From the IMG/VR virus record IMGVR_UViG_3300020049_016248: a stretch of 64,000 nucleotides of DNA; one strand, 5' to 3'. This document shows positions 6,553 to 64,000 of the stretch, in pieces (position 1 is the first letter of the stretch; each line of letters opens with the position of its first letter). The translations under genes were made by a program, and so were the position numbers. Source of the DNA: a virus. Taxonomy: Duplodnaviria; Heunggongvirae; Uroviricota; Caudoviricetes. The notes beneath the pieces are model-generated. The model had not been told where the DNA came from. It worked only from the letters and a program-made list of their open reading frames with translations, and searched no databases.

Positions 6553-7494
6553 ATGTTTAGATATGTTGTAGGAATAGATAGAGGTGGAGTAACTGTAGAT
6601 AGTTCTTCTAAAATATCTAAAGAAGAAATGTTACTTGAAGTAAAAGAAATAAGTGAAGAGTTTGATTATGGAATTTATTTTTTTCAAAAAGTTAACGTTT
6701 ACACTGTTTTAGGGGATGAGTACACAATAGTATATTCTCCAGTTGAAATTAACACAGGTAAAATTTTAAATTATGCACAAAACTCTGATGATGGTGTTTA
6801 TGTTTCATTACAAAAGTTAACTTCTTTAATAAAGGAAAGTAGCAACAAAGTAGATAAATTAATCGAAAAGTTAGAAAAACTAACTGGTAAAAAGGTTAAG
6901 TTAAAAGAAGCTTCATCTTCTACAAAGTTTGAATTAACTAGTAAAGGAAAATCTTTAGTTGCTGATTATAAACAACTACATAGTGCATTAGTTAGATTAG
7001 GTGTTGAGGATGATTTTGAATTAGGTGATGATGCTATGGATGCACAAACAGTATATGGTGCAGCTGTAGTTTTAAAAGATATAAATTCTTTAAAACCTTA
7101 TTTTACTTTAGATGAAATAATTGATATAGAAGGTGATGAAGAGTTTGTTGAAAAGACTTTGATTCCTTTATATCTAAGAAGAGGATATATTAAACAAGTA
7201 ACGACAGAAAATGTAAAGTTGACTGAAGTTGCAAAAACGTTTAAAAAAGACATTGGATTGAGTACATCGTTTGACGAATTCAGAGAAATAGATTCCTTGT
7301 TAAGAAAAGCTGGTTTTAAAGCATCAACGATAGAAGATACAGTTCGCGGAATTGTTGACGAAACTTTAGATTATTATTGGTGGATTGCTAGAGGTGATGA
7401 TATGCCTCATGGTATTACAATCAATAACCCTAAAATTTTTAAAACTAAAATGTATAACGCTTTATTAGACTATCAAGGTGAAAGCGAATATTAA
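6553..7494 (+). CDS. putative internal head protein; may originally have started at 6478
   Basis: EKLTGKKVKLKE motif; in-frame upstream ATG at 6478 separated by TAG 6517-6519. Confidence 0.45.
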   Translation: MFRYVVGIDRGGVTVDSSSKISKEEMLLEVKEISEEFDYGIYFFQKVNVYTVLGDEYTIVYSPVEINTGKILNYAQNSDDGVYVSLQKLTSLIKESSNKVDKLIEKLEKLTGKKVKLKEASSSTKFELTSKGKSLVADYKQLHSALVRLGVEDDFELGDDAMDAQTVYGAAVVLKDINSLKPYFTLDEIIDIEGDEEFVEKTLIPLYLRRGYIKQVTTENVKLTEVAKTFKKDIGLSTSFDEFREIDSLLRKAGFKASTIEDTVRGIVDETLDYYWWIARGDDMPHGITINNPKIFKTKMYNALLDYQGESEY

Positions 7495-8980: not shown

Positions 8981-9481
8981 ATGTCAAAGTTTAAATCTTA
9001 TAAAATTTGGAAAAACTGGCATTGGTGTAATATATTATTCCGATTTAGTTTATTATTTGATTGTAGACGTATGGTTAAACAGGTGATATTTAAAAAATCT
9101 TGCTTATATACTTTACCTTTCCCTGATAAGTTAGATATTAATAAACTCTTTGGATTTTCTTACGGGTTACATCATAATAATTCAGCAAGATTTGGTTGGC
9201 ATTGTGTAGAAGATCATATAGCTCTTTTTGCTTATTGTTATATAAACGGTAAACGAGAAGAAAAATTTATTACTTTAATTAAACCTGAACAAGAATATAA
9301 ACTTATGATTAGTGTAAGTAATAAAAAATATGTATTTACTGTGTTTGAAGGTAAAAACTTGATTCAACGTACAATAGATAAGCCAAATAACCTATTTAAA
9401 ATAGGTTATAAATTATGGCCATATTTTGGTGGTAATAGAAAAGCACCTCATACAATGGAAATTTTATTAGCAGACGAATAA
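8981..9481 (+). CDS. hypothetical phage protein
   Basis: Intact ORF; DINKLFGFSYG..H.NSARFGW and LWPYFGGN motifs. Confidence 0.6.
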   Translation: MSKFKSYKIWKNWHWCNILFRFSLLFDCRRMVKQVIFKKSCLYTLPFPDKLDINKLFGFSYGLHHNNSARFGWHCVEDHIALFAYCYINGKREEKFITLIKPEQEYKLMISVSNKKYVFTVFEGKNLIQRTIDKPNNLFKIGYKLWPYFGGNRKAPHTMEILLADE

Positions 9482-9491
9482 AAATTAAATA

Positions 9492-10673
9492 ATGGACAAG
9501 AAAAACTTAAAAGAAGCAGTTGAAAGTGTTGAACAGTTAAAATCTCGTATTTCTTCTTTAGAACAAGCTTATCAAAATCGTAAAGCAGAAGTTGAAGATG
9601 ATGAATATTGGAAAGATGTTCCTAGGGGAGCTAAGTTAGCAATATTATCAAAGTTAGATTCTTTGCAAAGAGAATTAGATAGAGCTAAAAAGAAACTAAC
9701 ACGATTAGAAGCTAGTGAAGTTGTAGTTGAAGACGAATTACCTGGCGGTATAGGTGATGATGCAAAAGTTAGTGACTTTTCACCAGAACAAATTTCAACA
9801 GGTTTGAAAGTAGAAATGGAACATACTAATGATCCTAAAATAGCTTTAGAAATTGTATTAGATCACTTAACAGAAGATTCAGAATACTATACAAAGTTAG
9901 CTACTATTGAGAGTGAACCAGAAATTGCTTCTTCAGAAATTGTTGCACCAGAAAAAGAAATGAGTATAGACCCTGAACTAGCTCTTAATCAAAGATCACA
10001 ATTAGAAGCTTTAGTTCAACAATTAGAAAATTTTATAATAACTTCAAAAGCTGAAAACACTTTAGCAGATGAATTGAAAGAAGCTTTATCTAAATTAAAA
10101 AACGTTGTAGAGATTTTAGATAAAGAAAGTTCAGTTTTATTTCAAACTAAAGAAAATGAAGATGATATAGATTATGTTGTAACCAGAGAAGATGAACCTT
10201 CTGAGGAAGAACATATAACATCCCTTATTGAAGAAGAAGTTGAAGAAGTTATTCTTGAACCAGAAGCAACTAAAATGGTTAAAAGTATTTTAGCTGATAT
10301 GTTAGCTAATAAAACTCCTTATATAACTGATGCAACTACAAAGTTCCCTTATATAGTTGAAGCTGAACCAGGTGATAATGAAGAATCTGTAGAAATCTTA
10401 TTAGGTTTTAACACAAAAGAATATGGTAAACATTTTGACGGTTGGGTTGAATTAAAATATGTGATTGATTACAGTTATACTCCAGCAAGAGCAAGCAATT
10501 CAAGAGACATTACACCTGAAGATTCAGATTTTGAGTTAAACTCAGTTACAATAGAAAGTATTCAGTTTTATAATGATACTAACAGTGAAAATTATTTCTT
10601 ATCTTTAGGAGATGTAGAGTTAAAAACTCTTGCAGAAAAAGTAGGAAATAAAATTATAGATGTTAGTTATTAA
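9492..10673 (+). CDS. acidic protein with DUF5661-like domain, putative head-associated
   Basis: GLKVEMEHTNDPKIALEIVLDHLTEDSEYYTKL; N-terminal MDKKNLKE. Confidence 0.65.
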   Translation: MDKKNLKEAVESVEQLKSRISSLEQAYQNRKAEVEDDEYWKDVPRGAKLAILSKLDSLQRELDRAKKKLTRLEASEVVVEDELPGGIGDDAKVSDFSPEQISTGLKVEMEHTNDPKIALEIVLDHLTEDSEYYTKLATIESEPEIASSEIVAPEKEMSIDPELALNQRSQLEALVQQLENFIITSKAENTLADELKEALSKLKNVVEILDKESSVLFQTKENEDDIDYVVTREDEPSEEEHITSLIEEEVEEVILEPEATKMVKSILADMLANKTPYITDATTKFPYIVEAEPGDNEESVEILLGFNTKEYGKHFDGWVELKYVIDYSYTPARASNSRDITPEDSDFELNSVTIESIQFYNDTNSENYFLSLGDVELKTLAEKVGNKIIDVSY

Positions 10674-56542: not shown

Positions 56543-57381
56543 TGGAAAAATATTATTTAAAAACTAGTAAAGTTGAGAATAAACCTGGTCAATGGAATTC
56601 TGTCTTATGTGAGATTTACAACTCAAAAGATGAAAAGTTAGGGGAATATCTCCGACATTATTATTCATTCGCTTTTTCAACCTTTTTTCCATTTTCTTCA
56701 AACGGTAAAGATTATGCTTTGTATTCAGCTGACTACAATACAATTTCAGTAATGAATTTACCGAACTGTACACCTGTTGAACTTAAACCAGAATGTATTG
56801 AACAATTAAATCATTTTTGTCCAGTTGAAGTTTATGTCCCTCGTTTTGAAGACCATGATAAGTATAGAAGTCAAATTCATTCTTCAGATGAAAAATATGA
56901 AGAAGGTTATAGTGGGTTTTCTACTTTAGCTTTTGTTACCGGTTGTGTTTGGGGAGATGATAGTTCTTGGAAGTTAAATTTATTAGACTTGTCAAACATT
57001 GAAAACGGTGAACTATGGTATGTCGATAATTCTTTAAACAAGAAATGGTTATATGTTGATACTCCTATATCACCTGATAAATTTCATTGCTTTTTTGAGA
57101 AAGATAGCAACTTTCCTTATGCCTATGACCAAGTTATCGAAGAGCATCAAAACTTTCGACACAATATTTTAAATGAGTTAGAAATAAATGAGCATGACTC
57201 TGTAATTTCAATAGTTAATATTGAAGATATTCCTAGAGAAACAGAAGGTGTTGTAGTTCATGTTTATCATAGTTCTAAAGTTTTTGCAGTAGAATTTTTT
57301 GAAAATAAAAAAAGCTTAGGGGTATTCACAGTAAAAGGACATCAATTAAAAAAACTCAATACATCAAATGAAAATAAATAA
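56542..57381 (+). CDS. hypothetical protein with C-terminal DUF4926-like domain
   Basis: EHDSV..DIP..TEGVVVHVY..FAVEFF. Confidence 0.55.
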   Translation: MEKYYLKTSKVENKPGQWNSVLCEIYNSKDEKLGEYLRHYYSFAFSTFFPFSSNGKDYALYSADYNTISVMNLPNCTPVELKPECIEQLNHFCPVEVYVPRFEDHDKYRSQIHSSDEKYEEGYSGFSTLAFVTGCVWGDDSSWKLNLLDLSNIENGELWYVDNSLNKKWLYVDTPISPDKFHCFFEKDSNFPYAYDQVIEEHQNFRHNILNELEINEHDSVISIVNIEDIPRETEGVVVHVYHSSKVFAVEFFENKKSLGVFTVKGHQLKKLNTSNENK

Positions 57382-58309
57382 TCTTCTTAAGTCACGTTTA
57401 TTTCTCTCATGTTTAGGGACTGTAATGTTTGTATTAGGATTTTGGAGCTGGTGGCAAGTAGCTGACACTCCATCATCTACACCTATTTACTGGTTTCAAC
57501 TTACACTAGGTGTAATTTTAATAGTTTTTTCATTAGCATTAACTTATCTACTTTATCTTGACTGGTGTTCAAAAAAAGAACCTAAAAGTGAATTGAAAGA
57601 TGAATATTATTTATTTCTAGATGATGACCGTATTCCAGCTGATTGCGCTACGTATATGTATGCATTTAAAGTAGATTGTAAGATTTATCATAAACCTTGG
57701 GAGATTGTAAGATCTTATAGTCAATTCAAAGAAATAATTGAAAGGAGAGGTTTACCAAAATTAATTTCCTTTGACCATGATTTAGCTGATAATTGGAAAT
57801 TGAGAGAAAGTTTAGATATTAAAGATTGGTTTGATGAAACTGAAGGTAGAGAGTATACAGGGATGGATTGTGCAAAATGGTTAGTGCAATACTGTTTAGA
57901 AAAAGATTTACTATTACCTAAGTTTATAGTTCACTCTGCTAACCCTGTAGGGAGAGAAAATATTAAGTCTTATTTAACTAATTTCAAACTAAGACAAGGT
58001 TTAACGATTGGTGATGTTGAGTGGAGTTGGAGAAAGGATTTAAAAGATAGTTATCTTTGGGAAGCTAATTGGGTATCGTTAGATGGTGATGGGATAAGAT
58101 TATATATTCAAAAAGATGAAACAGGTTTTTCTTTAGAGTGTTTTAGTGGTATTCCAGCAAGTTCAATTAACATAGATTCAATAGATTATGGGTCATTGTG
58201 GAGTAAGATGAATGTAGTTGAACCTATATCAGATTATAGTTATATTCAACAAAGTGTAATAATAGCAAATTATTTATGTGAACAATTTTGCGAAAAAAGC
58301 GAATTTTAA
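57368..58309 (+). CDS. 2-TM protein with cyclic-phosphate-processing receiver-like domain
   Basis: LFLDDDRIP, VRSY.QF, ISFDHDL, TGMDCAKWL, HSANPVGRENI. Confidence 0.75.
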   Translation: MKINNLLKSRLFLSCLGTVMFVLGFWSWWQVADTPSSTPIYWFQLTLGVILIVFSLALTYLLYLDWCSKKEPKSELKDEYYLFLDDDRIPADCATYMYAFKVDCKIYHKPWEIVRSYSQFKEIIERRGLPKLISFDHDLADNWKLRESLDIKDWFDETEGREYTGMDCAKWLVQYCLEKDLLLPKFIVHSANPVGRENIKSYLTNFKLRQGLTIGDVEWSWRKDLKDSYLWEANWVSLDGDGIRLYIQKDETGFSLECFSGIPASSINIDSIDYGSLWSKMNVVEPISDYSYIQQSVIIANYLCEQFCEKSEF

Positions 58310-59333
58310 TATGACAAAGTTTTTTAATTATCAAGCATTCCGTAATGATGAACAAATGTTCAAACATTATGTAACAGCATTTCAAATGTTGTTCAATGAA
58401 GGATCTATTTTTGTTTCTACTAGGTTTAAAATGATTTATGTTTTTACTTCTAAAGAGTTAACTGTTAGGGAAATTGTTTTATTATTTGAGAAAAACCAAG
58501 TTGGTGGTGCAAAAACTTTTGAAGGTATTTTACAAGAAATAAGCCCTTGTTCACTTTCAGGTTATCTTCCAAAAGTTTTCTTTGACACAAAAGATGGCAA
58601 AGATCAATTTAGTAATTTTGAAGATATTTTAGTAAAAGCAAGGGAAGAAGAAAAAGGTAGCTTAATAGGTACAGTCGCAAAAATTAAAGAAGAGTTAAAT
58701 AAAGATTAGTAATGACGATAGAAGAGTTTATTGAAACTACGTATAATGTAACAGTTACACCTGGGTTTTCTTATCAAAAGATAAGACCTAGGATTGTTTG
58801 TAATGATGGGTTTAGTTTAAGTGTTCAATGTTCTGAATATGCTTATTCTACACCTAGAAAAAACATTAAAAAGTATACAGAAGTAGAAATAGGTTATCCT
58901 TCAAGTGAAGAAGAATTAATTGTTGAGTATGCTGAAGACCCAGATCATCTAACAGAAACTGTTTATGGTTACGTTCCTATAGAAGTAGTTAGAGAGGTTT
59001 TAAATAAACATCGAGGTATTAATATTGGTGCAACATTCCCTCGTATCGTTGAAGAAACAGTAAAAAAGATAAATAAAGAATTAGATGAAGAAAGATAAAG
59101 ATAAAGAAGAATTTCTCATTGACAAGAAAATTATAAGTGGATTGACCCCAGGTCAATGTAACGCTTTAGCTAACTCTATTGAAGAAAACTATCATAAGTT
59201 GAAAGAGACTTGGGAGTTGGTTAAGACAACTGCAGAACAAAAAAGATATTTAGAAAGTTTAGATTTAAGAATAAAAAACTATAGAGCATATTACGAACAA
59301 GACTTACTGAGTACAACAAAAGAAAAACAATAA
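58278..59333 (+). CDS. three hypothetical ORFs (58278 tagged, 58712 tagged, 59085)
   Basis: 58712 has RIVCNDGFSLSVQ..YSTPR..TVYGYVP. Confidence 0.65.
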
Positions 59334-59338
59334 AATAG

Positions 59339-59369
59339 TTTGTAGTTTGAAAAATAAAGCATACTTTTA
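59339..59369 (+). promoter_or_regulatory. Bacteroidota-like promoter for the tRNA operon (TTTG-N19-TACTTTTA)
   Basis: Motif and spacing; a TATTTA is also present at 59393. Confidence 0.55.
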
Positions 59370-59404
59370 GGTTATAATTAAGAGAATAAGTATATTTAAT
59401 AACA

Positions 59405-59500
59405 ATGAAAAGAATTTTTAACATAACTTTTTGTCCGATAACAATCGTTGAGGATATTATTGCGGTGGATGAACCGTCAGTAAAAACTAGAGGTATGTAA
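59405..59500 (+). CDS. attenuator leader peptide 1 (31 aa)
   Basis: MKRIFNITFCPITIVEDIIAVDEPSVKTRGM; control codons match the downstream tRNAs. Confidence 0.8.
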   Translation: MKRIFNITFCPITIVEDIIAVDEPSVKTRGM

Positions 59501-59523
59501 AAATAAAAATATATTAAATATTT

Positions 59524-59558
59524 AAACCTCTAGTTGTAAAAAAGCTAGAGGTTTTTTT
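59524..59558 (+). terminator. attenuator terminator 1
   Basis: aaacctctagtt-gtaaaaa-agctagaggttttttt; 5' arm also complementary to aactagaggt at 59485-59494. Confidence 0.9.
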
Positions 59559-59600
59559 ATCTTTAAAAAACAACGTGTGGTATAAGGGGTAGGTTTATCT

Positions 59601-59673
59601 CGAGAATATGGTGTAATCTGGTCGCACAAATGCTTTGGGAGCATTAAGAGCCGTTCAAATCGGATATTCTCGA
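59601..59673 (+). tRNA. tRNA-Pro(TGG), slightly atypical acceptor/T stem
   Basis: aatgc-tttggga-gcatt; C1-G72, A73. Confidence 0.8.
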
Positions 59674-59716
59674 CTTCTTTGGTTCGAACCTTGCTACCCT
59701 GACAACAATTAATAAT

Positions 59717-59788
59717 GCTCCCGTCGTCTACTGGCTAGGACATAAGGTTTTCAACCTTAAAAAGGCGGATCGATACCGCTCGGGAGTA
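59717..59788 (+). tRNA. tRNA-Glu(TTC)
   Basis: taagg-ttttcaa-cctta; gctcccg/cgggagt; T-loop ATCGATA. Confidence 0.9.
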
Positions 59789-60016
59789 CAAACAAAAAAA
59801 TAACAATATGAAAAAAACTTTTAAAAAACTTTTAACTATCAAGAAGAAAGAAACTGTAAAAGAAATTAAAACTTTTCATTCTATAGCAATAAGAGTAGAT
59901 GAAATAGGTAAAAAGAGATTAATAATCTAAAACAATCTTGTTCTAGTTGTGTGATAGCATATAGAATCCAAAGTAAATCTTAGTAATAGGGTCTAAGAAG
60001 ATTGTTTTAAAATTTT

Positions 60017-60096
60017 GGTCTACGGGGCTGCTAGACGTGGCCGTCGCACTGTCACTGCGAAGATTCAGATGGGTTTAAATCCCATGTAGACCGCCA
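60017..60096 (+). tRNA. tRNA-Asp(GTC) with encoded CCA
   Basis: tcgca-ctgtcac-tgcga; ggtctac/gtagacc G CCA. Confidence 0.9.
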
Positions 60097-60100
60097 AAAT

Positions 60101-60229
60101 AGCACAATCGTCTAATTGTACGAAAATCGTACTGTTAGTTTTCAGTTCGAAAGACTATTGGAAAAACTGATACGGTAAGGGTACCGGCTTTGGATGCCGG
60201 AGATCTAGGTTCGAGTCCTAGTTGTGCTG
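60101..60229 (+). tRNA. tRNA-like gene (anticodon TGG by pairing) with 58-nt D-loop insertion
   Basis: agcacaa/ttgtgct, ccggc-tttggat-gccgg, ctagg-ttcgagt-cctag. Confidence 0.7.
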
Positions 60230-60239
60230 CTAAATTGAA

Positions 60240-60479
60240 ATGATTATGAATATGGATTTAAACTTAACAGCTATTGTCAAAGATAACTTTGTACACTTTA
60301 GAAGATATAGAGTAGGTAATTTCTTTTACGGAGTTGTATACAAAGGAGAAAAGTATGAATTTCCAGTTCCTTTAGAAGATATCGGAGATGCAACATTGCC
60401 TGATTCTGACAAAGCAATTATGTTTATGCGTTACATAAGAAAAGCAATTAACGATAATACATTTGTAAGTATAAATTAA
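60240..60479 (+). CDS. small hypothetical protein inside the tRNA cluster
   Basis: FPVPLEDIGDAT..DKAIMFMRYIRKA. Confidence 0.65.
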   Translation: MIMNMDLNLTAIVKDNFVHFRRYRVGNFFYGVVYKGEKYEFPVPLEDIGDATLPDSDKAIMFMRYIRKAINDNTFVSIN

Positions 60480-60486
60480 TTAATAA

Positions 60487-60559
60487 GGGCTTGTAGCTCA
60501 ACTGGCTGAGCGCTTCGTTTGCAACGAAGAGGATGAGGGTTCAAATCCCTTCAGGTCCA
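60487..60559 (+). tRNA. tRNA-Ala(TGC)
   Basis: cttcg-tttgcaa-cgaag; G3.U70. Confidence 0.93.
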
Positions 60560-60579
60560 CTGAGTAAATTACAATATAT

Positions 60580-60651
60580 ACTCATATAATTCAGTGGTAG
60601 AATGCGATCCTGATAAGATCGATGTCGAAGGTTCAATTCCTTCTATGAGTA
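60580..60651 (+). tRNA. tRNA-Ile(GAT)
   Basis: cgatc-ctgataa-gatcg; actcata/tatgagt. Confidence 0.92.
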
Positions 60652-60818
60652 CATGAACAGTAAAAATAATGATTACAGAATTAGACAATAAAGTTCAAAA
60701 AGAAATTGAAGCAATTTTCGATAAAGAAAAGGAAACTAAAAACTTACCTTCTCGTAAACGTAAGTTGAAAAGAATGAGATTAAAAGTTTGTAAGTTTTTT
60801 TCTTTTAACTAATTTTAT

Positions 60819-60893
60819 GTCCGATTAGCTCAGCAGGTTTAGAGCGTTGGTTTTACACACCAAAGGTCACAAGTTCGACTCTTGTATCGGATA
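60819..60893 (+). tRNA. tRNA-Val(TAC)
   Basis: ttggt-tttacac-accaa; gtccgat/atcggat. Confidence 0.92.
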
Positions 60894-60910
60894 CTTAAAA
60901 AAAAGAAAAC

Positions 60911-61387
60911 ATGAATGTAAGTGGTTATGAAATCGAAAACCGTTATCTCTTAAAAAGAGTTCCAAATATTTCTTTTGATGAGGTTTTTGAAATTGAACAA
61001 TTTTATACCCCTGAAGGTAGATTTAGATTCAAAAAAAATAAGAACACAAAAGAGGTTTCTTACTATCAAACGAACAAAAAAACTATATCACCTGGTGTTA
61101 ATGAAGAGATTGAAAAAGAGATCTCAGAATTTGAATTTAACAAAGCTATTAAAACAGCTACAAGAAAAATAGTTAAAGAAAGAGGTATAATAAAACATTC
61201 AGGTTTAACTTGGGAAGTAGATTATTTCATTGGAAACTTATTAGTAATCTTAGAGGTTGAAGTTGATACTGTAGAAGATCTTAAACAAATTGTTTTACCT
61301 GACTTCTTTCAAGAGGTTTTAATCTTAGATGTTACAGGTATAAAAGAGTTTTCAAATTATAATTTAGCTGACAATATAAAAAACTAA
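60911..61387 (+). CDS. CYTH (triphosphate tunnel) domain protein
   Basis: EIENRYL, IEQFY, EEIEKEI, IVKER, WEVDYF, LEVE, DVTG..SNYNL. Confidence 0.85.
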   Translation: MNVSGYEIENRYLLKRVPNISFDEVFEIEQFYTPEGRFRFKKNKNTKEVSYYQTNKKTISPGVNEEIEKEISEFEFNKAIKTATRKIVKERGIIKHSGLTWEVDYFIGNLLVILEVEVDTVEDLKQIVLPDFFQEVLILDVTGIKEFSNYNLADNIKN

Positions 61388-61389
61388 AA

Positions 61390-61587
61390 ATGGAATTAGA
61401 CAAGTTTGTAAATCAAGTTTTAAATAAAGAAAAGGGAACAGTAATTAAATTATGCAAAGAGTCTAAATTGATTCCTAGAGTTGTGAGAGAAGATAAAACA
61501 ACTTTTTTCGGAACACAAGACTTAAACTTTGAAAGAGTTAATTTAGAAATCGACAACGGTATTGTTACAAACGCTTATTTAGGATAA
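61390..61587 (+). CDS. small protein resembling the I78 inhibitor family
   Basis: TQDLNFERVNLEIDNGIVTNAYLG. Confidence 0.5.
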   Translation: MELDKFVNQVLNKEKGTVIKLCKESKLIPRVVREDKTTFFGTQDLNFERVNLEIDNGIVTNAYLG

Positions 61588-62258
61588 TGGAACTATCAAT
61601 TTTACATATTTCTGACACACACAATAAACATAAAATTATTCCGAAAGACTGGTTAGTGCCAGCAGATGTAATTGTACATTCGGGTGACATTTCAGGTAGA
61701 GGTTATTTTGCAGAAATTGAAGATTTTTTAAGCTGGTATTCAAACTTAACACAATATACATATAAAATTTTAATTGCAGGTAATCATGATTTTGGTTTTC
61801 AAGATAACCCTAATAAAGTGCGAGAGTTATTGAATGATTATCCTGATATTATTTATTTAGAAGATTCAGGTGTTGAAATTCTTGGGGTAAAATTTTGGGG
61901 TTCACCTTGGCAACCTACTTTCTTTAATTGGGCTTTCAATTTAGATAGAGGTTTACCTTTGAAAGAGAAATGGGATTTAATACCAAAAGATACAAACGTA
62001 TTGATAACACATGGACCTGTTAAGGGTTATAGAGACAAAGTTTACAATAGATATAGTACAAGTGGTGAAAGTGTAGGTTGTGAAGATTTGTTGAAAGTAG
62101 TTTTAAAAATAAAACCTAAATTATTTTGTTGTGGACACATCCACTGCAGTTATGGTATAGAAGAAAACGAAAATACTATATTTAGTAATGGATCGATTTT
62201 AGACGAAGATTATCAAATTGCGAATCACCCTAATGTTTTTAAAATCAATTGCCCATGA
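61587..62258 (+). CDS. metallophosphoesterase (MPPED-like)
   Basis: ISDTH, HSGD, IAGNHD, GSPWQP, ITHGP, GHIH. Confidence 0.92.
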   Translation: MELSILHISDTHNKHKIIPKDWLVPADVIVHSGDISGRGYFAEIEDFLSWYSNLTQYTYKILIAGNHDFGFQDNPNKVRELLNDYPDIIYLEDSGVEILGVKFWGSPWQPTFFNWAFNLDRGLPLKEKWDLIPKDTNVLITHGPVKGYRDKVYNRYSTSGESVGCEDLLKVVLKIKPKLFCCGHIHCSYGIEENENTIFSNGSILDEDYQIANHPNVFKINCP

Positions 62259-62458
62259 TATTATTAGAGTTTACAAAGCAAGAGTTAAGTAAATGTGTTT
62301 TAGCACAAATACTTACAGGTAGAGGGAAAGATCAATATGAGTCTATGTTAAGTGTAGGAATATCTCCAAGTATAGTGGAAAATTGTATAAGGAATAAAGT
62401 TACATTATCACAGTATGAAAAAAAACAAATTGAAATATTAAAAACGATTATTATATAA
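62249..62458 (+). CDS. hypothetical protein
   Basis: Its stop overlaps the leader-2 ATG (TAATG). Confidence 0.5.
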   Translation: MPMILLEFTKQELSKCVLAQILTGRGKDQYESMLSVGISPSIVENCIRNKVTLSQYEKKQIEILKTIII

Positions 62459-62517
62459 TGAGAACAAATTTAACAATATGTATATGTTTAAAAAATTTAA
62501 TTCTACCTAAGAGTTGA
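62458..62517 (+). CDS. attenuator leader peptide 2 (19 aa)
   Basis: MRTNLTICICLKNLILPKS with ATA-TGT-ATA-TGT. Confidence 0.7.
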   Translation: MRTNLTICICLKNLILPKS

Positions 62518-62541
62518 AAGACATAACTATTGTTATAACTT

Positions 62542-62576
62542 AAAACCTCTAGATAGAAATATTTAGAGGTTTTTTT
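62542..62576 (+). terminator. attenuator terminator 2
   Basis: aaaacctctagata-gaaa-tatttagaggttttttt; alternative pairing with ttctacctaagag at 62501-62513. Confidence 0.9.
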
Positions 62577-62580
62577 ATTT

Positions 62581-62655
62581 GTTGGGGAAGCATAACTGGT
62601 ACATGCGCAAAGCTTATACCTTTGAGACAGTCGGGTTCAAGTCCCACCCCCAATA
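62581..62655 (+). tRNA. tRNA-Ile(TAT)
   Basis: caaag-cttatac-ctttg; gttgggg/ccccaat A73; D stem gcat/atgc. Confidence 0.85.
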
Positions 62656-62754
62656 CTACATAAGGTGCTTTTGTTCATGGAGAGCAGTAGTAAGTGTATT
62701 TGAGTTTGTTAACAGTTTTGAACCTATTATACCTATTTATAATAAAAAATTACA

Positions 62755-63582
62755 ATGGGAAATAATAAGAGCTATGACAAAGTGATAATTCACCCAAACC
62801 ATATTAAAAATTCAAAACAACTTACTGCGTTGGTAAGGAGTAGAAAGATAGAAAACGAACGCATATATTTAGAGTCACCGAAATGTTGTAAACAGTGTTT
62901 TAAAGTTTTAGAGTATGAAGATAGAACTAAAGAATTTTGCAATCGTTCATGTGCAAGTATTTATTCTAATATTAATAGAGTGTTTGCACCTAAGAATGAT
63001 CAAAGAACAAAAAAAGGGAACTGTAAAAAATGTAACAAAGAAGTTGTGGTTAATATAAGAGCTTCAAGTGAAAACATTGTATGTAAAGAATGTAAGGAAG
63101 CTAACCCTTACAATAAGGTAAAATATAAAAAAGGAATAAATAAATGTAAATTTTGTACTGAAGATGTTGTGCAACCTAAAATGATTTGCACAACATGTAG
63201 AGACAATTTTAAAAATGTTTATAGTTTCAACTGTAGATTTGATTTCCCTTTAAGTAAGTTTGTTGAATTGTTTGACTTTGAACTAATAAAAAAACACGGT
63301 TGGTATAAAGCAAAAAATAAAGGTAATAATTTACGTGGTGTGAGTAGGGATCATAAATTTTCAATTACAAGTGGGTTTAAAAATAAGATAGATCCAGTAT
63401 TAATGAAGCACCCTTGTAATTGTCAATTATTGTTACATAAAGATAATCAAAAGAAAAGACACAATTGTTCTATTTCTTTAGAACAGTTAATAAAAGAGGT
63501 AATAGCGTTTGAAAAAAAATATAATTATTGCCCTGAAGTTTTAACTTACATTAAAACTTTGAATACTGGTGATGTGGTCTGA
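62755..63582 (+). mobile_element. HNH endonuclease with Zn-finger CxxC repeats in the tRNA cluster
   Basis: Several CxxC pairs; SRDHKFS..HPCNCQLL.HKDN; TATTTA at 62734. Confidence 0.75.
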
Positions 63583-63650
63583 GTTGGTCGAAGGCATTCC
63601 ATTGCAACTGGAAAATACAAACATCGTGGGTTCGAATCCTACCATCACCT
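63568..63650 (+). tRNA. tRNA-Cys(GCA) with 12-nt variable loop
   Basis: ttcca-ttgcaac-tggaa; ggtgatg/catcacc U73. Confidence 0.85.
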
Positions 63651-63663
63651 CTTAACTTACAGA

Positions 63664-63688
63664 ACTGGTTCGATCCCAGTAGGCACCT
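63664..63688 (+). pseudogene. 3' tRNA fragment (T arm plus acceptor strand)
   Basis: actgg-ttcgatc-ccagt aggcacct with no 5' half. Confidence 0.55.
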
Positions 63689-63724
63689 CTTGATTGTTTG
63701 TAGTTTTGTTCGTATCTTTAGTGT

Positions 63725-64000
63725 ATGGAAAATTATAAACCTTTACCGTTACCTAAAGATACAGCGTGGGAAAGAAAATCCCTTTCTAAATATTTACCAA
63801 TTTGGTTAAATCATTTTATTGAAAGTTTACGAAACACTTTAAAATGGTTACCAGTTATTTGGGGAGATAAACATTGGGACTATTATTATGTTTATGAAAT
63901 GTTAAAGAAAAAACTAGAATTTCAAAGAGAATATTTAGTTAAGAATAACAGAAACTTAGGGGTGCCTAGTGATAATTTTTACATAACAATTTGTTTAAAT
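63725..64000 (+). CDS. hypothetical protein, runs off the window
   Basis: MENYKPL..KWLPVIWGDKHWDYYYVYEMLKKKL. Confidence 0.7.
   Translation, partial: MENYKPLPLPKDTAWERKSLSKYLPIWLNHFIESLRNTLKWLPVIWGDKHWDYYYVYEMLKKKLEFQREYLVKNNRNLGVPSDNFYITICLN

Follow-up and report, generated by a model that had tools for sequence, protein, structure and literature searches.

How does a phage that carries its own tRNA genes determine when the tRNAs are made? Phage tRNA genes are usually discussed as constitutive supplements to codon usage or as substitutes for the tRNAs that host defences destroy, and to our knowledge the control of their expression is largely unknown. The question is raised by a 64,000-nucleotide (nt) stretch of DNA from the genome of a large, uncultured tailed phage of the Caudoviricetes (IMG/VR record IMGVR_UViG_3300020049_016248; the whole stretch is referred to here as the window), in which a block of tRNA genes is preceded by a 31-codon open reading frame (ORF), which we call the leader, and by an intrinsic terminator. 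We have found that this arrangement, module 1, is one of five of its kind in a phage family and that, beyond reasonable doubt, the leaders are matched to the tRNA blocks behind them. The best-supported mechanism, to which we assign a probability of roughly three in four, is that the leaders act as ribosome-sensing switches between a terminator and an antiterminator and would open when their codons are read slowly. The features of module 1 and of its tRNA block, in window coordinates, are as follows.

59338–59404, plus strand: promoter-like region upstream of leader 1, a conserved block
59405–59500, plus strand: leader ORF of module 1, 31 codons and a TAA stop codon, of the same frame and length in the relatives L091, L093 and L094
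59414–59431, plus strand: segment 0, the anti-antiterminator, which pairs with 59489–59504 in the predicted fold of the untranslated RNA
59444–59476, plus strand: control run of 11 codons, Ile Val Glu Asp Ile Ile Ala Val Asp Glu Pro
59459–59481, plus strand: small hairpin within the control run, predicted in four of four lineages
59485–59494, plus strand: segment 1, the antiterminator arm, which ends 3 nt ahead of the stop codon
59524–59558, plus strand: intrinsic terminator with a 12-bp stem, a 7-nt loop and seven T residues
59601–59674, plus strand: tRNA-Pro(TGG) (tRNA caller, Rfam)
59717–59789, plus strand: tRNA-Glu(TTC) (tRNA caller, Rfam)
60017–60096, plus strand: tRNA-Asp(GTC) (tRNA caller)
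60101–60230, plus strand: tRNA-like gene, anticodon TGG, whose D region holds a long insertion (ARAGORN with the threshold lowered, partial Rfam match)
60487–60560, plus strand: tRNA-Ala(TGC) (tRNA caller, Rfam)
60580–60652, plus strand: tRNA-Ile(GAT) (tRNA caller, Rfam)
60819–60894, plus strand: tRNA-Val(TAC) (tRNA caller, Rfam)

An earlier note on this DNA had proposed that the leader is an attenuator of the trp/his/ilv type, and we found the ORF, the terminator and the order of the tRNA genes to be exactly as it had described them. The leader lies 100 nt from the first tRNA gene and on the same strand, and the leaders of the other four modules are likewise directly upstream of their blocks. 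The eleven codons of the control run specify only Ile, Val, Glu, Asp, Ala and Pro, and include all six; these are the amino acids of block 1 (Pro, Glu, Asp, Ala, Ile [GAT] and Val). The stem of the terminator is formed by 59524–59535 and 59543–59554, the seven T residues lie at 59552–59558 and the energy of the hairpin is −15.4 to −15.9 kcal/mol. Segment 1, just ahead of the stop codon at 59498, is the exact 10-nt complement of 59526–59535 in the 5′ arm of the terminator, again as had been claimed.

Could the match between run and block be fortuitous? With the 79 long ORFs of the window as a reference for codon usage, the codons read by the six tRNAs of block 1 make up 33% of phage codons, and the probability that a random 30-codon ORF with phage codon usage contains a run of at least 11 matching codons is 7 × 10^−5. 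None of the 15,112 eleven-codon stretches in the real genes of the window qualifies. The run is also rich in uncommon codons: those ending in G, which the earlier note had thought unusual for this DNA, are indeed so (GCG accounts for 3.7% of Ala codons, CCG for 5.6% of Pro codons and GTG for 6.4% of Val codons), and ATC, at 9.5% of Ile codons, is rare too.

A second module lies farther downstream in the window.

62458–62517, plus strand: module 2 leader ORF, 19 codons, whose ATG overlaps the stop codon of the upstream gene
62542–62580, plus strand: module 2 terminator, with a core common to the module 1 terminator
62581–62656, plus strand: tRNA-Ile(TAT) (tRNA caller, Rfam)
63568–63651, plus strand: tRNA-Cys(GCA) (tRNA caller, Rfam)

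Its leader carries Ile-ATA and Cys codons alternating twice (ATA TGT ATA TGT, 62476–62487), and its block consists of tRNA-Ile(TAT) and tRNA-Cys. Three more modules were found in relatives, which we reached by way of the 82-amino-acid (aa) protein encoded just upstream; these are metagenomic contigs, falling into four lineages, with the same gene order and with 71–100% protein identity. Modules 3, 4 and 5 were found there by prediction, that is, upstream of further tRNA blocks once the hypothesis had been formed. The leader of module 3 (L091 10031–10129, L094 10300–10398 and L108 4719–4817) has a run of Trp, Ser-TCN, Thr, Met, Thr, Thr, Arg-CGC, His, Ser-TCG and Met codons and precedes tRNA-Trp, tRNA-Ser(TGA), two tRNA-Thr, tRNA-His, tRNA-Arg(ACG) and tRNA-Met. 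That of module 4 (L108 7992–8054) has four Leu codons among seven and is followed by tRNA-Leu(TAG) and tRNA-Leu(TAA), and that of module 5 (L108 10165–10242) has eight codons of Gln and Ser-AGT and is followed by tRNA-Gln(TTG) and tRNA-Ser(GCT). All five modules have intrinsic terminators with T-runs.

The block-specific runs of modules 1, 2, 3 and 5 are 11, 4, 11 and 8 codons long. The corresponding probabilities for modules 2, 3 and 5 are 4.5 × 10^−5, 2 × 10^−8 and 2 × 10^−9, and that for module 4 is 0.015; the match of module 4 is weak, consisting as it does of only four alternating Leu codons, the same number as in the leader of module 2. A matrix of leaders against blocks is diagonal for modules 1, 2, 3 and 5. 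Moreover, the match extends to the level of isoacceptors: Ile is encoded by ATC and ATT in module 1, ahead of tRNA-Ile(GAT), and by ATA in module 2, ahead of tRNA-Ile(TAT), and Ser is encoded by TCN in module 3, ahead of tRNA-Ser(TGA), and by AGT in module 5, ahead of tRNA-Ser(GCT).

All five leaders open with a similar N-terminal motif (window 59405–59425 and 62458–62478; L108 4719, 7992 and 10165), which consists of Met, then Lys or Ile, then an Asn-rich stretch ending in Ile-ATA; the sequence AACATA is invariant in modules 1 and 3 directly ahead of the control run. The motif could serve in initiation, act through the nascent peptide or provide ATA as a test codon. Because the motif is common to all five, and the region upstream of the leader is common to modules 1 and 3, we regard the modules as paralogues whose control runs and stems have diverged.

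These findings bear on the alternative that the leader is an ordinary small gene that happens to sit, with an ordinary terminator, at the border of an operon, and that the codon match and the 10-nt complement are coincidences. Small ORFs do abound in phage genomes, this one was left uncalled by the gene callers in every relative and the core of its terminator recurs at 62545. The joint probabilities across the modules are, however, far below 10^−10, the matching is specific to isoacceptors, modules turned up where they had been predicted, unrelated phages share the design (see below) and the leader is more highly conserved than the flanking genes and two of the tRNA genes. We find such a string of coincidences scarcely credible. 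A chance ORF was rejected on the codon-match probabilities and on the discovery of modules by prediction. Likewise, we rejected the idea that duplication alone accounts for the repeated terminator, since modules 3 to 5 use other stems with matching partners.

The design is not confined to one family. A blind scan of loci from unrelated large phages, which had been fetched for another reason, revealed small ORFs with long runs that match the tRNA block behind them and that are followed by terminators. Examples of such codon-matched leaders are L055 4880–4978, L055 6728–6826, L090 10556–10651 and L037 2984–3091. Leaders in L055/L053 and in L064 precede a block of Ile, Asn, Tyr, Trp, Phe, Pro, Gln, His, Ser, Ile, Arg and Cys tRNAs, the leader in L090 precedes a block of Phe, Ile, Gln, Lys, Val, Tyr, Cys, His, Arg and Trp tRNAs, and a second leader in L055 precedes a block of Val, Thr, Lys, Met and Ala tRNAs. 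In four of the unrelated-phage leaders the pairing of the ORF tail with the terminator arm was reached by only 2–11 of 1,000 shuffled sequences. In addition, Arg-rich leaders precede tRNA-Arg(TCT) in L038 and L055, with no clear intrinsic terminator at either place. Thus the co-variation of leader codons with tRNA content that the earlier note had anticipated was seen both across the five paralogous modules and in unrelated phages.

Is the leader under selection, and as what kind of molecule? Leader 1 was compared among the window, L091, L093 and L094, and its conservation, which the earlier note had made a point on which its proposal could fail, was high: it is 94–97% identical in nucleotide sequence to its counterparts in the three other lineages, a level above that of all its surroundings. 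In the same lineages the flanking genes are 55–82% identical and the genes for tRNA-Ile and tRNA-Val just 66–77%. Only two changes are seen in the control run, both of them synonymous, whereas the N-terminal part of the peptide changes non-synonymously. In the alignment the stems of the terminator are invariant, and the loop and the spacer past the stop codon vary; a single A-to-G change in segment 1 of L091 preserves pairing as a G–U pair. Leader 2 is likewise conserved, in L091, L094 and L108; in L091 an insertion or deletion of 3 nt leaves its frame intact. Upstream of leader 1, what had been called a promoter-like motif stood up as a conserved block (88–92% identical in relatives); it can also be aligned with the sequence that precedes module 3 in L091 and L094. 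It is, however, a poor match to a sigma-70 promoter (TTGAAA and TATAAT, 20 nt apart) and is missing from the output of a promoter scan. A search for a shared promoter-like box, in which the motif was mis-specified, showed no enrichment.

Near-invariance that takes in third codon positions would also be expected of a region that acts as untranslated RNA, be it a small RNA between a promoter and a terminator of its own or an element that, like a T-box, binds anticodons through the run. This explanation would fit with the fold z-score of −4.9 and with the lack of a Shine-Dalgarno sequence ahead of the leader. Shine-Dalgarno sequences are, however, absent as a rule in this phage: they are rarer upstream of its genes than at random positions, and the upstream regions are A-rich. 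Since the other genes of the phage also lack them, an A-rich start free of a Shine-Dalgarno sequence is normal here. Furthermore, in every module an ATG begins an open frame that ends in a stop codon beside the antiterminator segment, the insertion or deletion in leader 2 keeps the frame and the matches extend in one frame over 4–11 consecutive codons, whereas a T-box has one specifier. Finally, a search of 59000–64000 with Rfam at E values of up to 1 returned the tRNAs and two chance-level matches to unrelated families, with no T-box. We therefore rejected the T-box reading, the element being an ORF with no such Rfam match, and we consider an untranslated RNA of any kind improbable.

If the leader is translated, how might its translation influence the terminator? 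When leader 1 and its terminator were folded with and without masking, as the earlier note had suggested, alternative hairpins were seen, with the antiterminator appearing at equilibrium in the window and L094 only. In untranslated leader 1, segment 0 is paired to the region of segment 1 and the terminator is formed in the minimum-energy fold of all four lineages (the z-score quoted above is that of the full-length fold). If a ribosome is positioned near the start of the run, the fold of lowest energy contains the antiterminator in the window and L094, and in L091 and L093 the antiterminator comes close to the lowest energy. A ribosome at the stop codon leaves the terminator alone able to form. 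Because equilibrium folding misses the switch in modules 2 and 3 and in two lineages of module 1, we also used shuffle tests and folds of the RNA before the 3′ arm of the terminator has been made. In these pre-terminator folds segment 1 sequesters 10–11 of the 12 nt of the 5′ arm in four of four lineages. The duplex between segment 1 and the terminator arm has an energy of −14.8 kcal/mol, which was reached by just one of 2,000 dinucleotide shuffles, and in the antiterminator state the A-rich loop can additionally pair with the T-run. The energy observed between ORF tail and terminator arm was reached by 6 of 2,000 shuffles for module 4, by 42 of 2,000 for module 5 and, for module 3, by 0, 8 and 3 of 2,000 in three lineages. 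Modules 1, 3, 4 and 5 achieve this pairing with different stem sequences, in which single changes leave it intact as G–U pairs, and this recurrence of alternative hairpins supports the geometry of the trp, his and ilv attenuators that had been ascribed to module 1. The small hairpin at 59459–59481 is possibly one at which RNA polymerase would pause.

The layout of these elements bears on the polarity of the response. In principle stalling could lower, and smooth translation raise, transcription of the tRNA genes, which would be a feed-forward link to translation capacity, and the thermodynamic dominance of the terminator might be taken in its favor. But segment 1 ends 3 nt before the stop codon, so that a terminating ribosome masks the antiterminator and a stalled one frees it; the stop codon has the same position next to the antiterminator segment in module 4 and a similar one in module 5. 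We thus hold the opposite polarity to be highly improbable.

A more serious contender is that the leader is a genuine sensor of tRNA supply that works by some other route, be it access of Rho, cleavage by an RNase, stability of the precursor or translational coupling, the hairpin being mainly an element for processing or stability. Equilibrium folds mostly retain the terminator, the Arg-rich leaders of L038 and L055 have no clear intrinsic terminator and module 2 has no convincing antiterminator in three of four lineages. Against this, four modules have different stems, each with a complementary segment in the tail of its ORF, as do several unrelated phages, and the hairpins are canonical intrinsic terminators with T-runs. 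We judge this route to be unlikely, and more of a rival than any of the foregoing, and we prefer the terminator–antiterminator switch.

Several observations nonetheless weigh against such a switch, or at least against its simplest form. In most of the masked equilibrium folds the stability of the terminator equals or exceeds that of the antiterminator; given that it is usually the more stable of the two, the switch must be kinetic, as in trp. In module 2 the pairing of the tail is significant in L091 only (24 of 2,000 shuffles); in the window and L108 it does no better than chance, and the duplex in L094 is similarly weak. In L094 leader 2 also retains its Cys codons with no tRNA-Cys behind tRNA-Ile(TAT). 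The rare G-ending codons of leader 1 also build the local hairpin, which may explain their presence without slow decoding, and its GTT codon requires wobble decoding from U34 by tRNA-Val(TAC). The near-invariance of the leader means that there are too few substitutions for selection on the peptide to be told apart from selection on the codons or the RNA. The tRNA blocks of modules 1 and 2, unlike those found by prediction, were delimited with the data already seen. In L107, a contig of low coverage (1.6×), a 1-nt deletion and one substitution in segment 1 (1040–1060) shift the frame of the leader; the cause is either an error of sequencing or natural variation that has changed the position of the stop codon. 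Lastly, protein genes lie within and after block 1 (59808, 60240, 60669, 60911 and 61587), and the switch would hence control them as well.

As to the gap in L094, past tRNA-Ile(TAT) at 9449–9560 both tRNA-Cys and most of the next gene are absent, only the 3′ end of that gene being left, which points to a deletion in this lineage that would have removed the tRNA gene together with most of its neighbor.

With these reservations, we picture module 1 (59338–59558) as a ribosome-mediated transcription attenuator of the trp/his/ilv type whose targets would be the tRNA genes of the phage. Transcription would start in the conserved upstream region, and the 31-codon leader would be translated as it is being made. 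When the cognate tRNAs are plentiful, the ribosome would reach the stop codon and cover segment 1, the terminator would form and the tRNA genes would go unread. When any one of the cognate tRNAs is in short supply, lacks its amino acid or is damaged, the ribosome would stall in the control run and leave segment 1 free to pair with the 5′ arm of the terminator as the arm emerges, so that RNA polymerase would read through. Read-through would yield exactly the limiting tRNAs, whose accumulation would close the switch again in a loop of negative feedback. In the absence of translation, segment 0 would pair with segment 1 and the terminator would form, making the default state off. A tRNA block is thus probably made only when ribosomes read the matched codons slowly, and with at least five modules in the phage family, one per tRNA block, supply would be tuned block by block. 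We infer that the leader is translated, as we do the direction and size of the response and its natural trigger (host tRNAs that become depleted or are cleaved, for instance by anticodon nucleases).

How does such a module compare with known systems? Its nearest counterparts are the leaders of ilvGMEDA (Ile, Leu and Val) and thr (Thr and Ile), with which it shares, as far as can be judged from sequence, a short translated leader for several amino acids, a terminator, a competing antiterminator, a decision that depends on the position of the ribosome and a default state that is off without translation. It differs from them in that the targets are tRNA genes, and the product is the sensed molecule itself, not an enzyme that makes an amino acid; in that as many as six tRNA species are sampled by one run, most of them once or twice and with rare codons; and in that several differently tuned modules reside in one tRNA island, in a phage whose genes lack Shine-Dalgarno sequences. 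The leaders hisL, trpL, leuL and pheL are alike in geometry and mechanism, down to the stop codon beside the would-be antiterminator segment, but theirs are runs of a single type of codon that control biosynthesis, and only the Arg-rich leaders of L038 and L055 resemble them. The pheST attenuator of E. coli, with its pheM leader, likewise controls a part of the decoding apparatus and not biosynthesis; it differs in governing a synthetase, in sensing one amino acid and in belonging to a cellular gene. T-box riboswitches also sense the status of tRNA and switch between terminator and antiterminator, upstream of aminoacylation genes, but they need no ribosome for this, since they bind uncharged tRNA themselves by means of one specifier codon and the T-box sequence, whereas the element here is an ORF. 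Since its targets are tRNA genes and a few small ORFs rather than the enzymes of amino-acid biosynthesis or the synthetase controlled by classical attenuators, the module is a variant of the leader-peptide attenuator that stands outside the classical members. In a search of the full-text literature we found no account of leader-peptide attenuation of tRNA genes, phage or cellular, which agrees with the guess in the earlier note that no attenuator had been described for a phage tRNA array.

If an attenuator does stand before each block, then the phage measures the speed of decoding codon by codon and makes only those tRNAs that are limiting, with feedback built in. A textbook mechanism would thereby be extended to a new class of target, one in which the product is what is sensed, and the leaders would provide a readout, from sequence alone, of which tRNAs a phage "worries about." The recurrence of the design in unrelated large phages means that it may be widespread, and the modules could be put to use as compact natural sensors that report how available specific tRNAs are. 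They would also offer a testable link between defences that target tRNAs and the counter-measures of phages. Indeed, we tentatively suggest, at somewhat less than even odds, that the modules are an alarm for tRNA damage, in which each leader would sample just those tRNA species that are removed by host anticodon nucleases or by a phage-induced shut-off of the host, and cleavage of any one of them would stall the ribosome and release a burst of replacement tRNAs for the affected block only. Such an alarm would fit with the adjoining genes of RNA-repair type (cREC_REC at 57368–58309, a metallophosphoesterase at 61587–62258 and synthetase-like genes in L108). Phage tRNA islands would in that case be counter-defence operons, inducible and self-limiting, and not constitutive supplements to codon usage.

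Turning to the phage itself, we note that genes without Shine-Dalgarno sequences are typical of phages of Bacteroidota-type hosts. This feature, in a window with a GC content of about 29%, suggests a host that initiates translation independently of Shine-Dalgarno sequences, such as a member of the Bacteroidota. The samples from which the phage and its relatives came include sewage and digester metagenomes. Among cultured phages the closest have a tail sheath of less than 30% identity, a DNA search of INPHARED with 58700–61400 gave short tRNA matches only and tblastn searches of phages with leaders 1 and 3 returned no meaningful match. In IMG/VR, relatives of a 128-aa upstream protein (L001–L010) carried no tRNAs, the 158-aa protein encoded downstream of block 1 had no relatives and pattern scans for the module returned no match; similar scans of metagenomes returned one relative (L107) and three chance matches in coding genes.

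The flanks of the tRNA island hold a cREC_REC (cyclic-phosphate processing receiver) protein, the conserved 158-aa protein (phrog_6660, 60911–61387) and the metallophosphoesterase, a context that suggests a putative role in RNA repair. For most of the neighboring genes, searches of Pfam and PHROGs gave no function. Between tRNA-Glu and tRNA-Asp lies a 40-aa Lys-rich ORF (59808–59930) that is called in all lineages, with 77–98% nucleotide identity. The TGG tRNA-like gene that the earlier note had pointed out was recovered by ARAGORN at a lowered threshold as tRNA-Pro(TGG) at 60160–60230, with a partial match to the Rfam tRNA family at 60162–60223; it is missed at the standard ARAGORN settings and is present in L094 as well (7200–7270).

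The start of block 1 differs among lineages. In L093, L094 and L107 the terminator is followed by a complete tRNA-Pro(TGG), and the window has a different tRNA-Pro in that place. The 28 nt past the terminator in the window (59573–59600) are homologous to the acceptor and D arm of that complete tRNA, and past the window tRNA-Pro, at 59675–59712, there is a T-arm-like stretch and then a segment complementary to 59586–59592. Taken together, the two stretches look like the remnant of a first tRNA-Pro that was disrupted by, or fused around, a second.

Insertions appear in the island as well. Between tRNA-Ile(TAT) and tRNA-Cys the window has a 275-aa Cys-rich ORF (62755–63582; phrog_23051, with no Pfam match) that overlaps the start of tRNA-Cys by 15 nt. 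Given that the two tRNA genes are adjacent in L091 and 36 nt apart in L108, the ORF is probably an inserted mobile gene, perhaps for a homing endonuclease. The island of the L093/L108 lineage has extras of its own (L108 1153–1764, 5074–5694, 7441–7926 and 8653–9885): a GIY-YIG endonuclease between tRNA-Ala and tRNA-Ile, a 206-aa HisRS-like fragment between tRNA-Ser and tRNA-Thr, an HNH endonuclease and a 410-aa gene product resembling class I synthetases.

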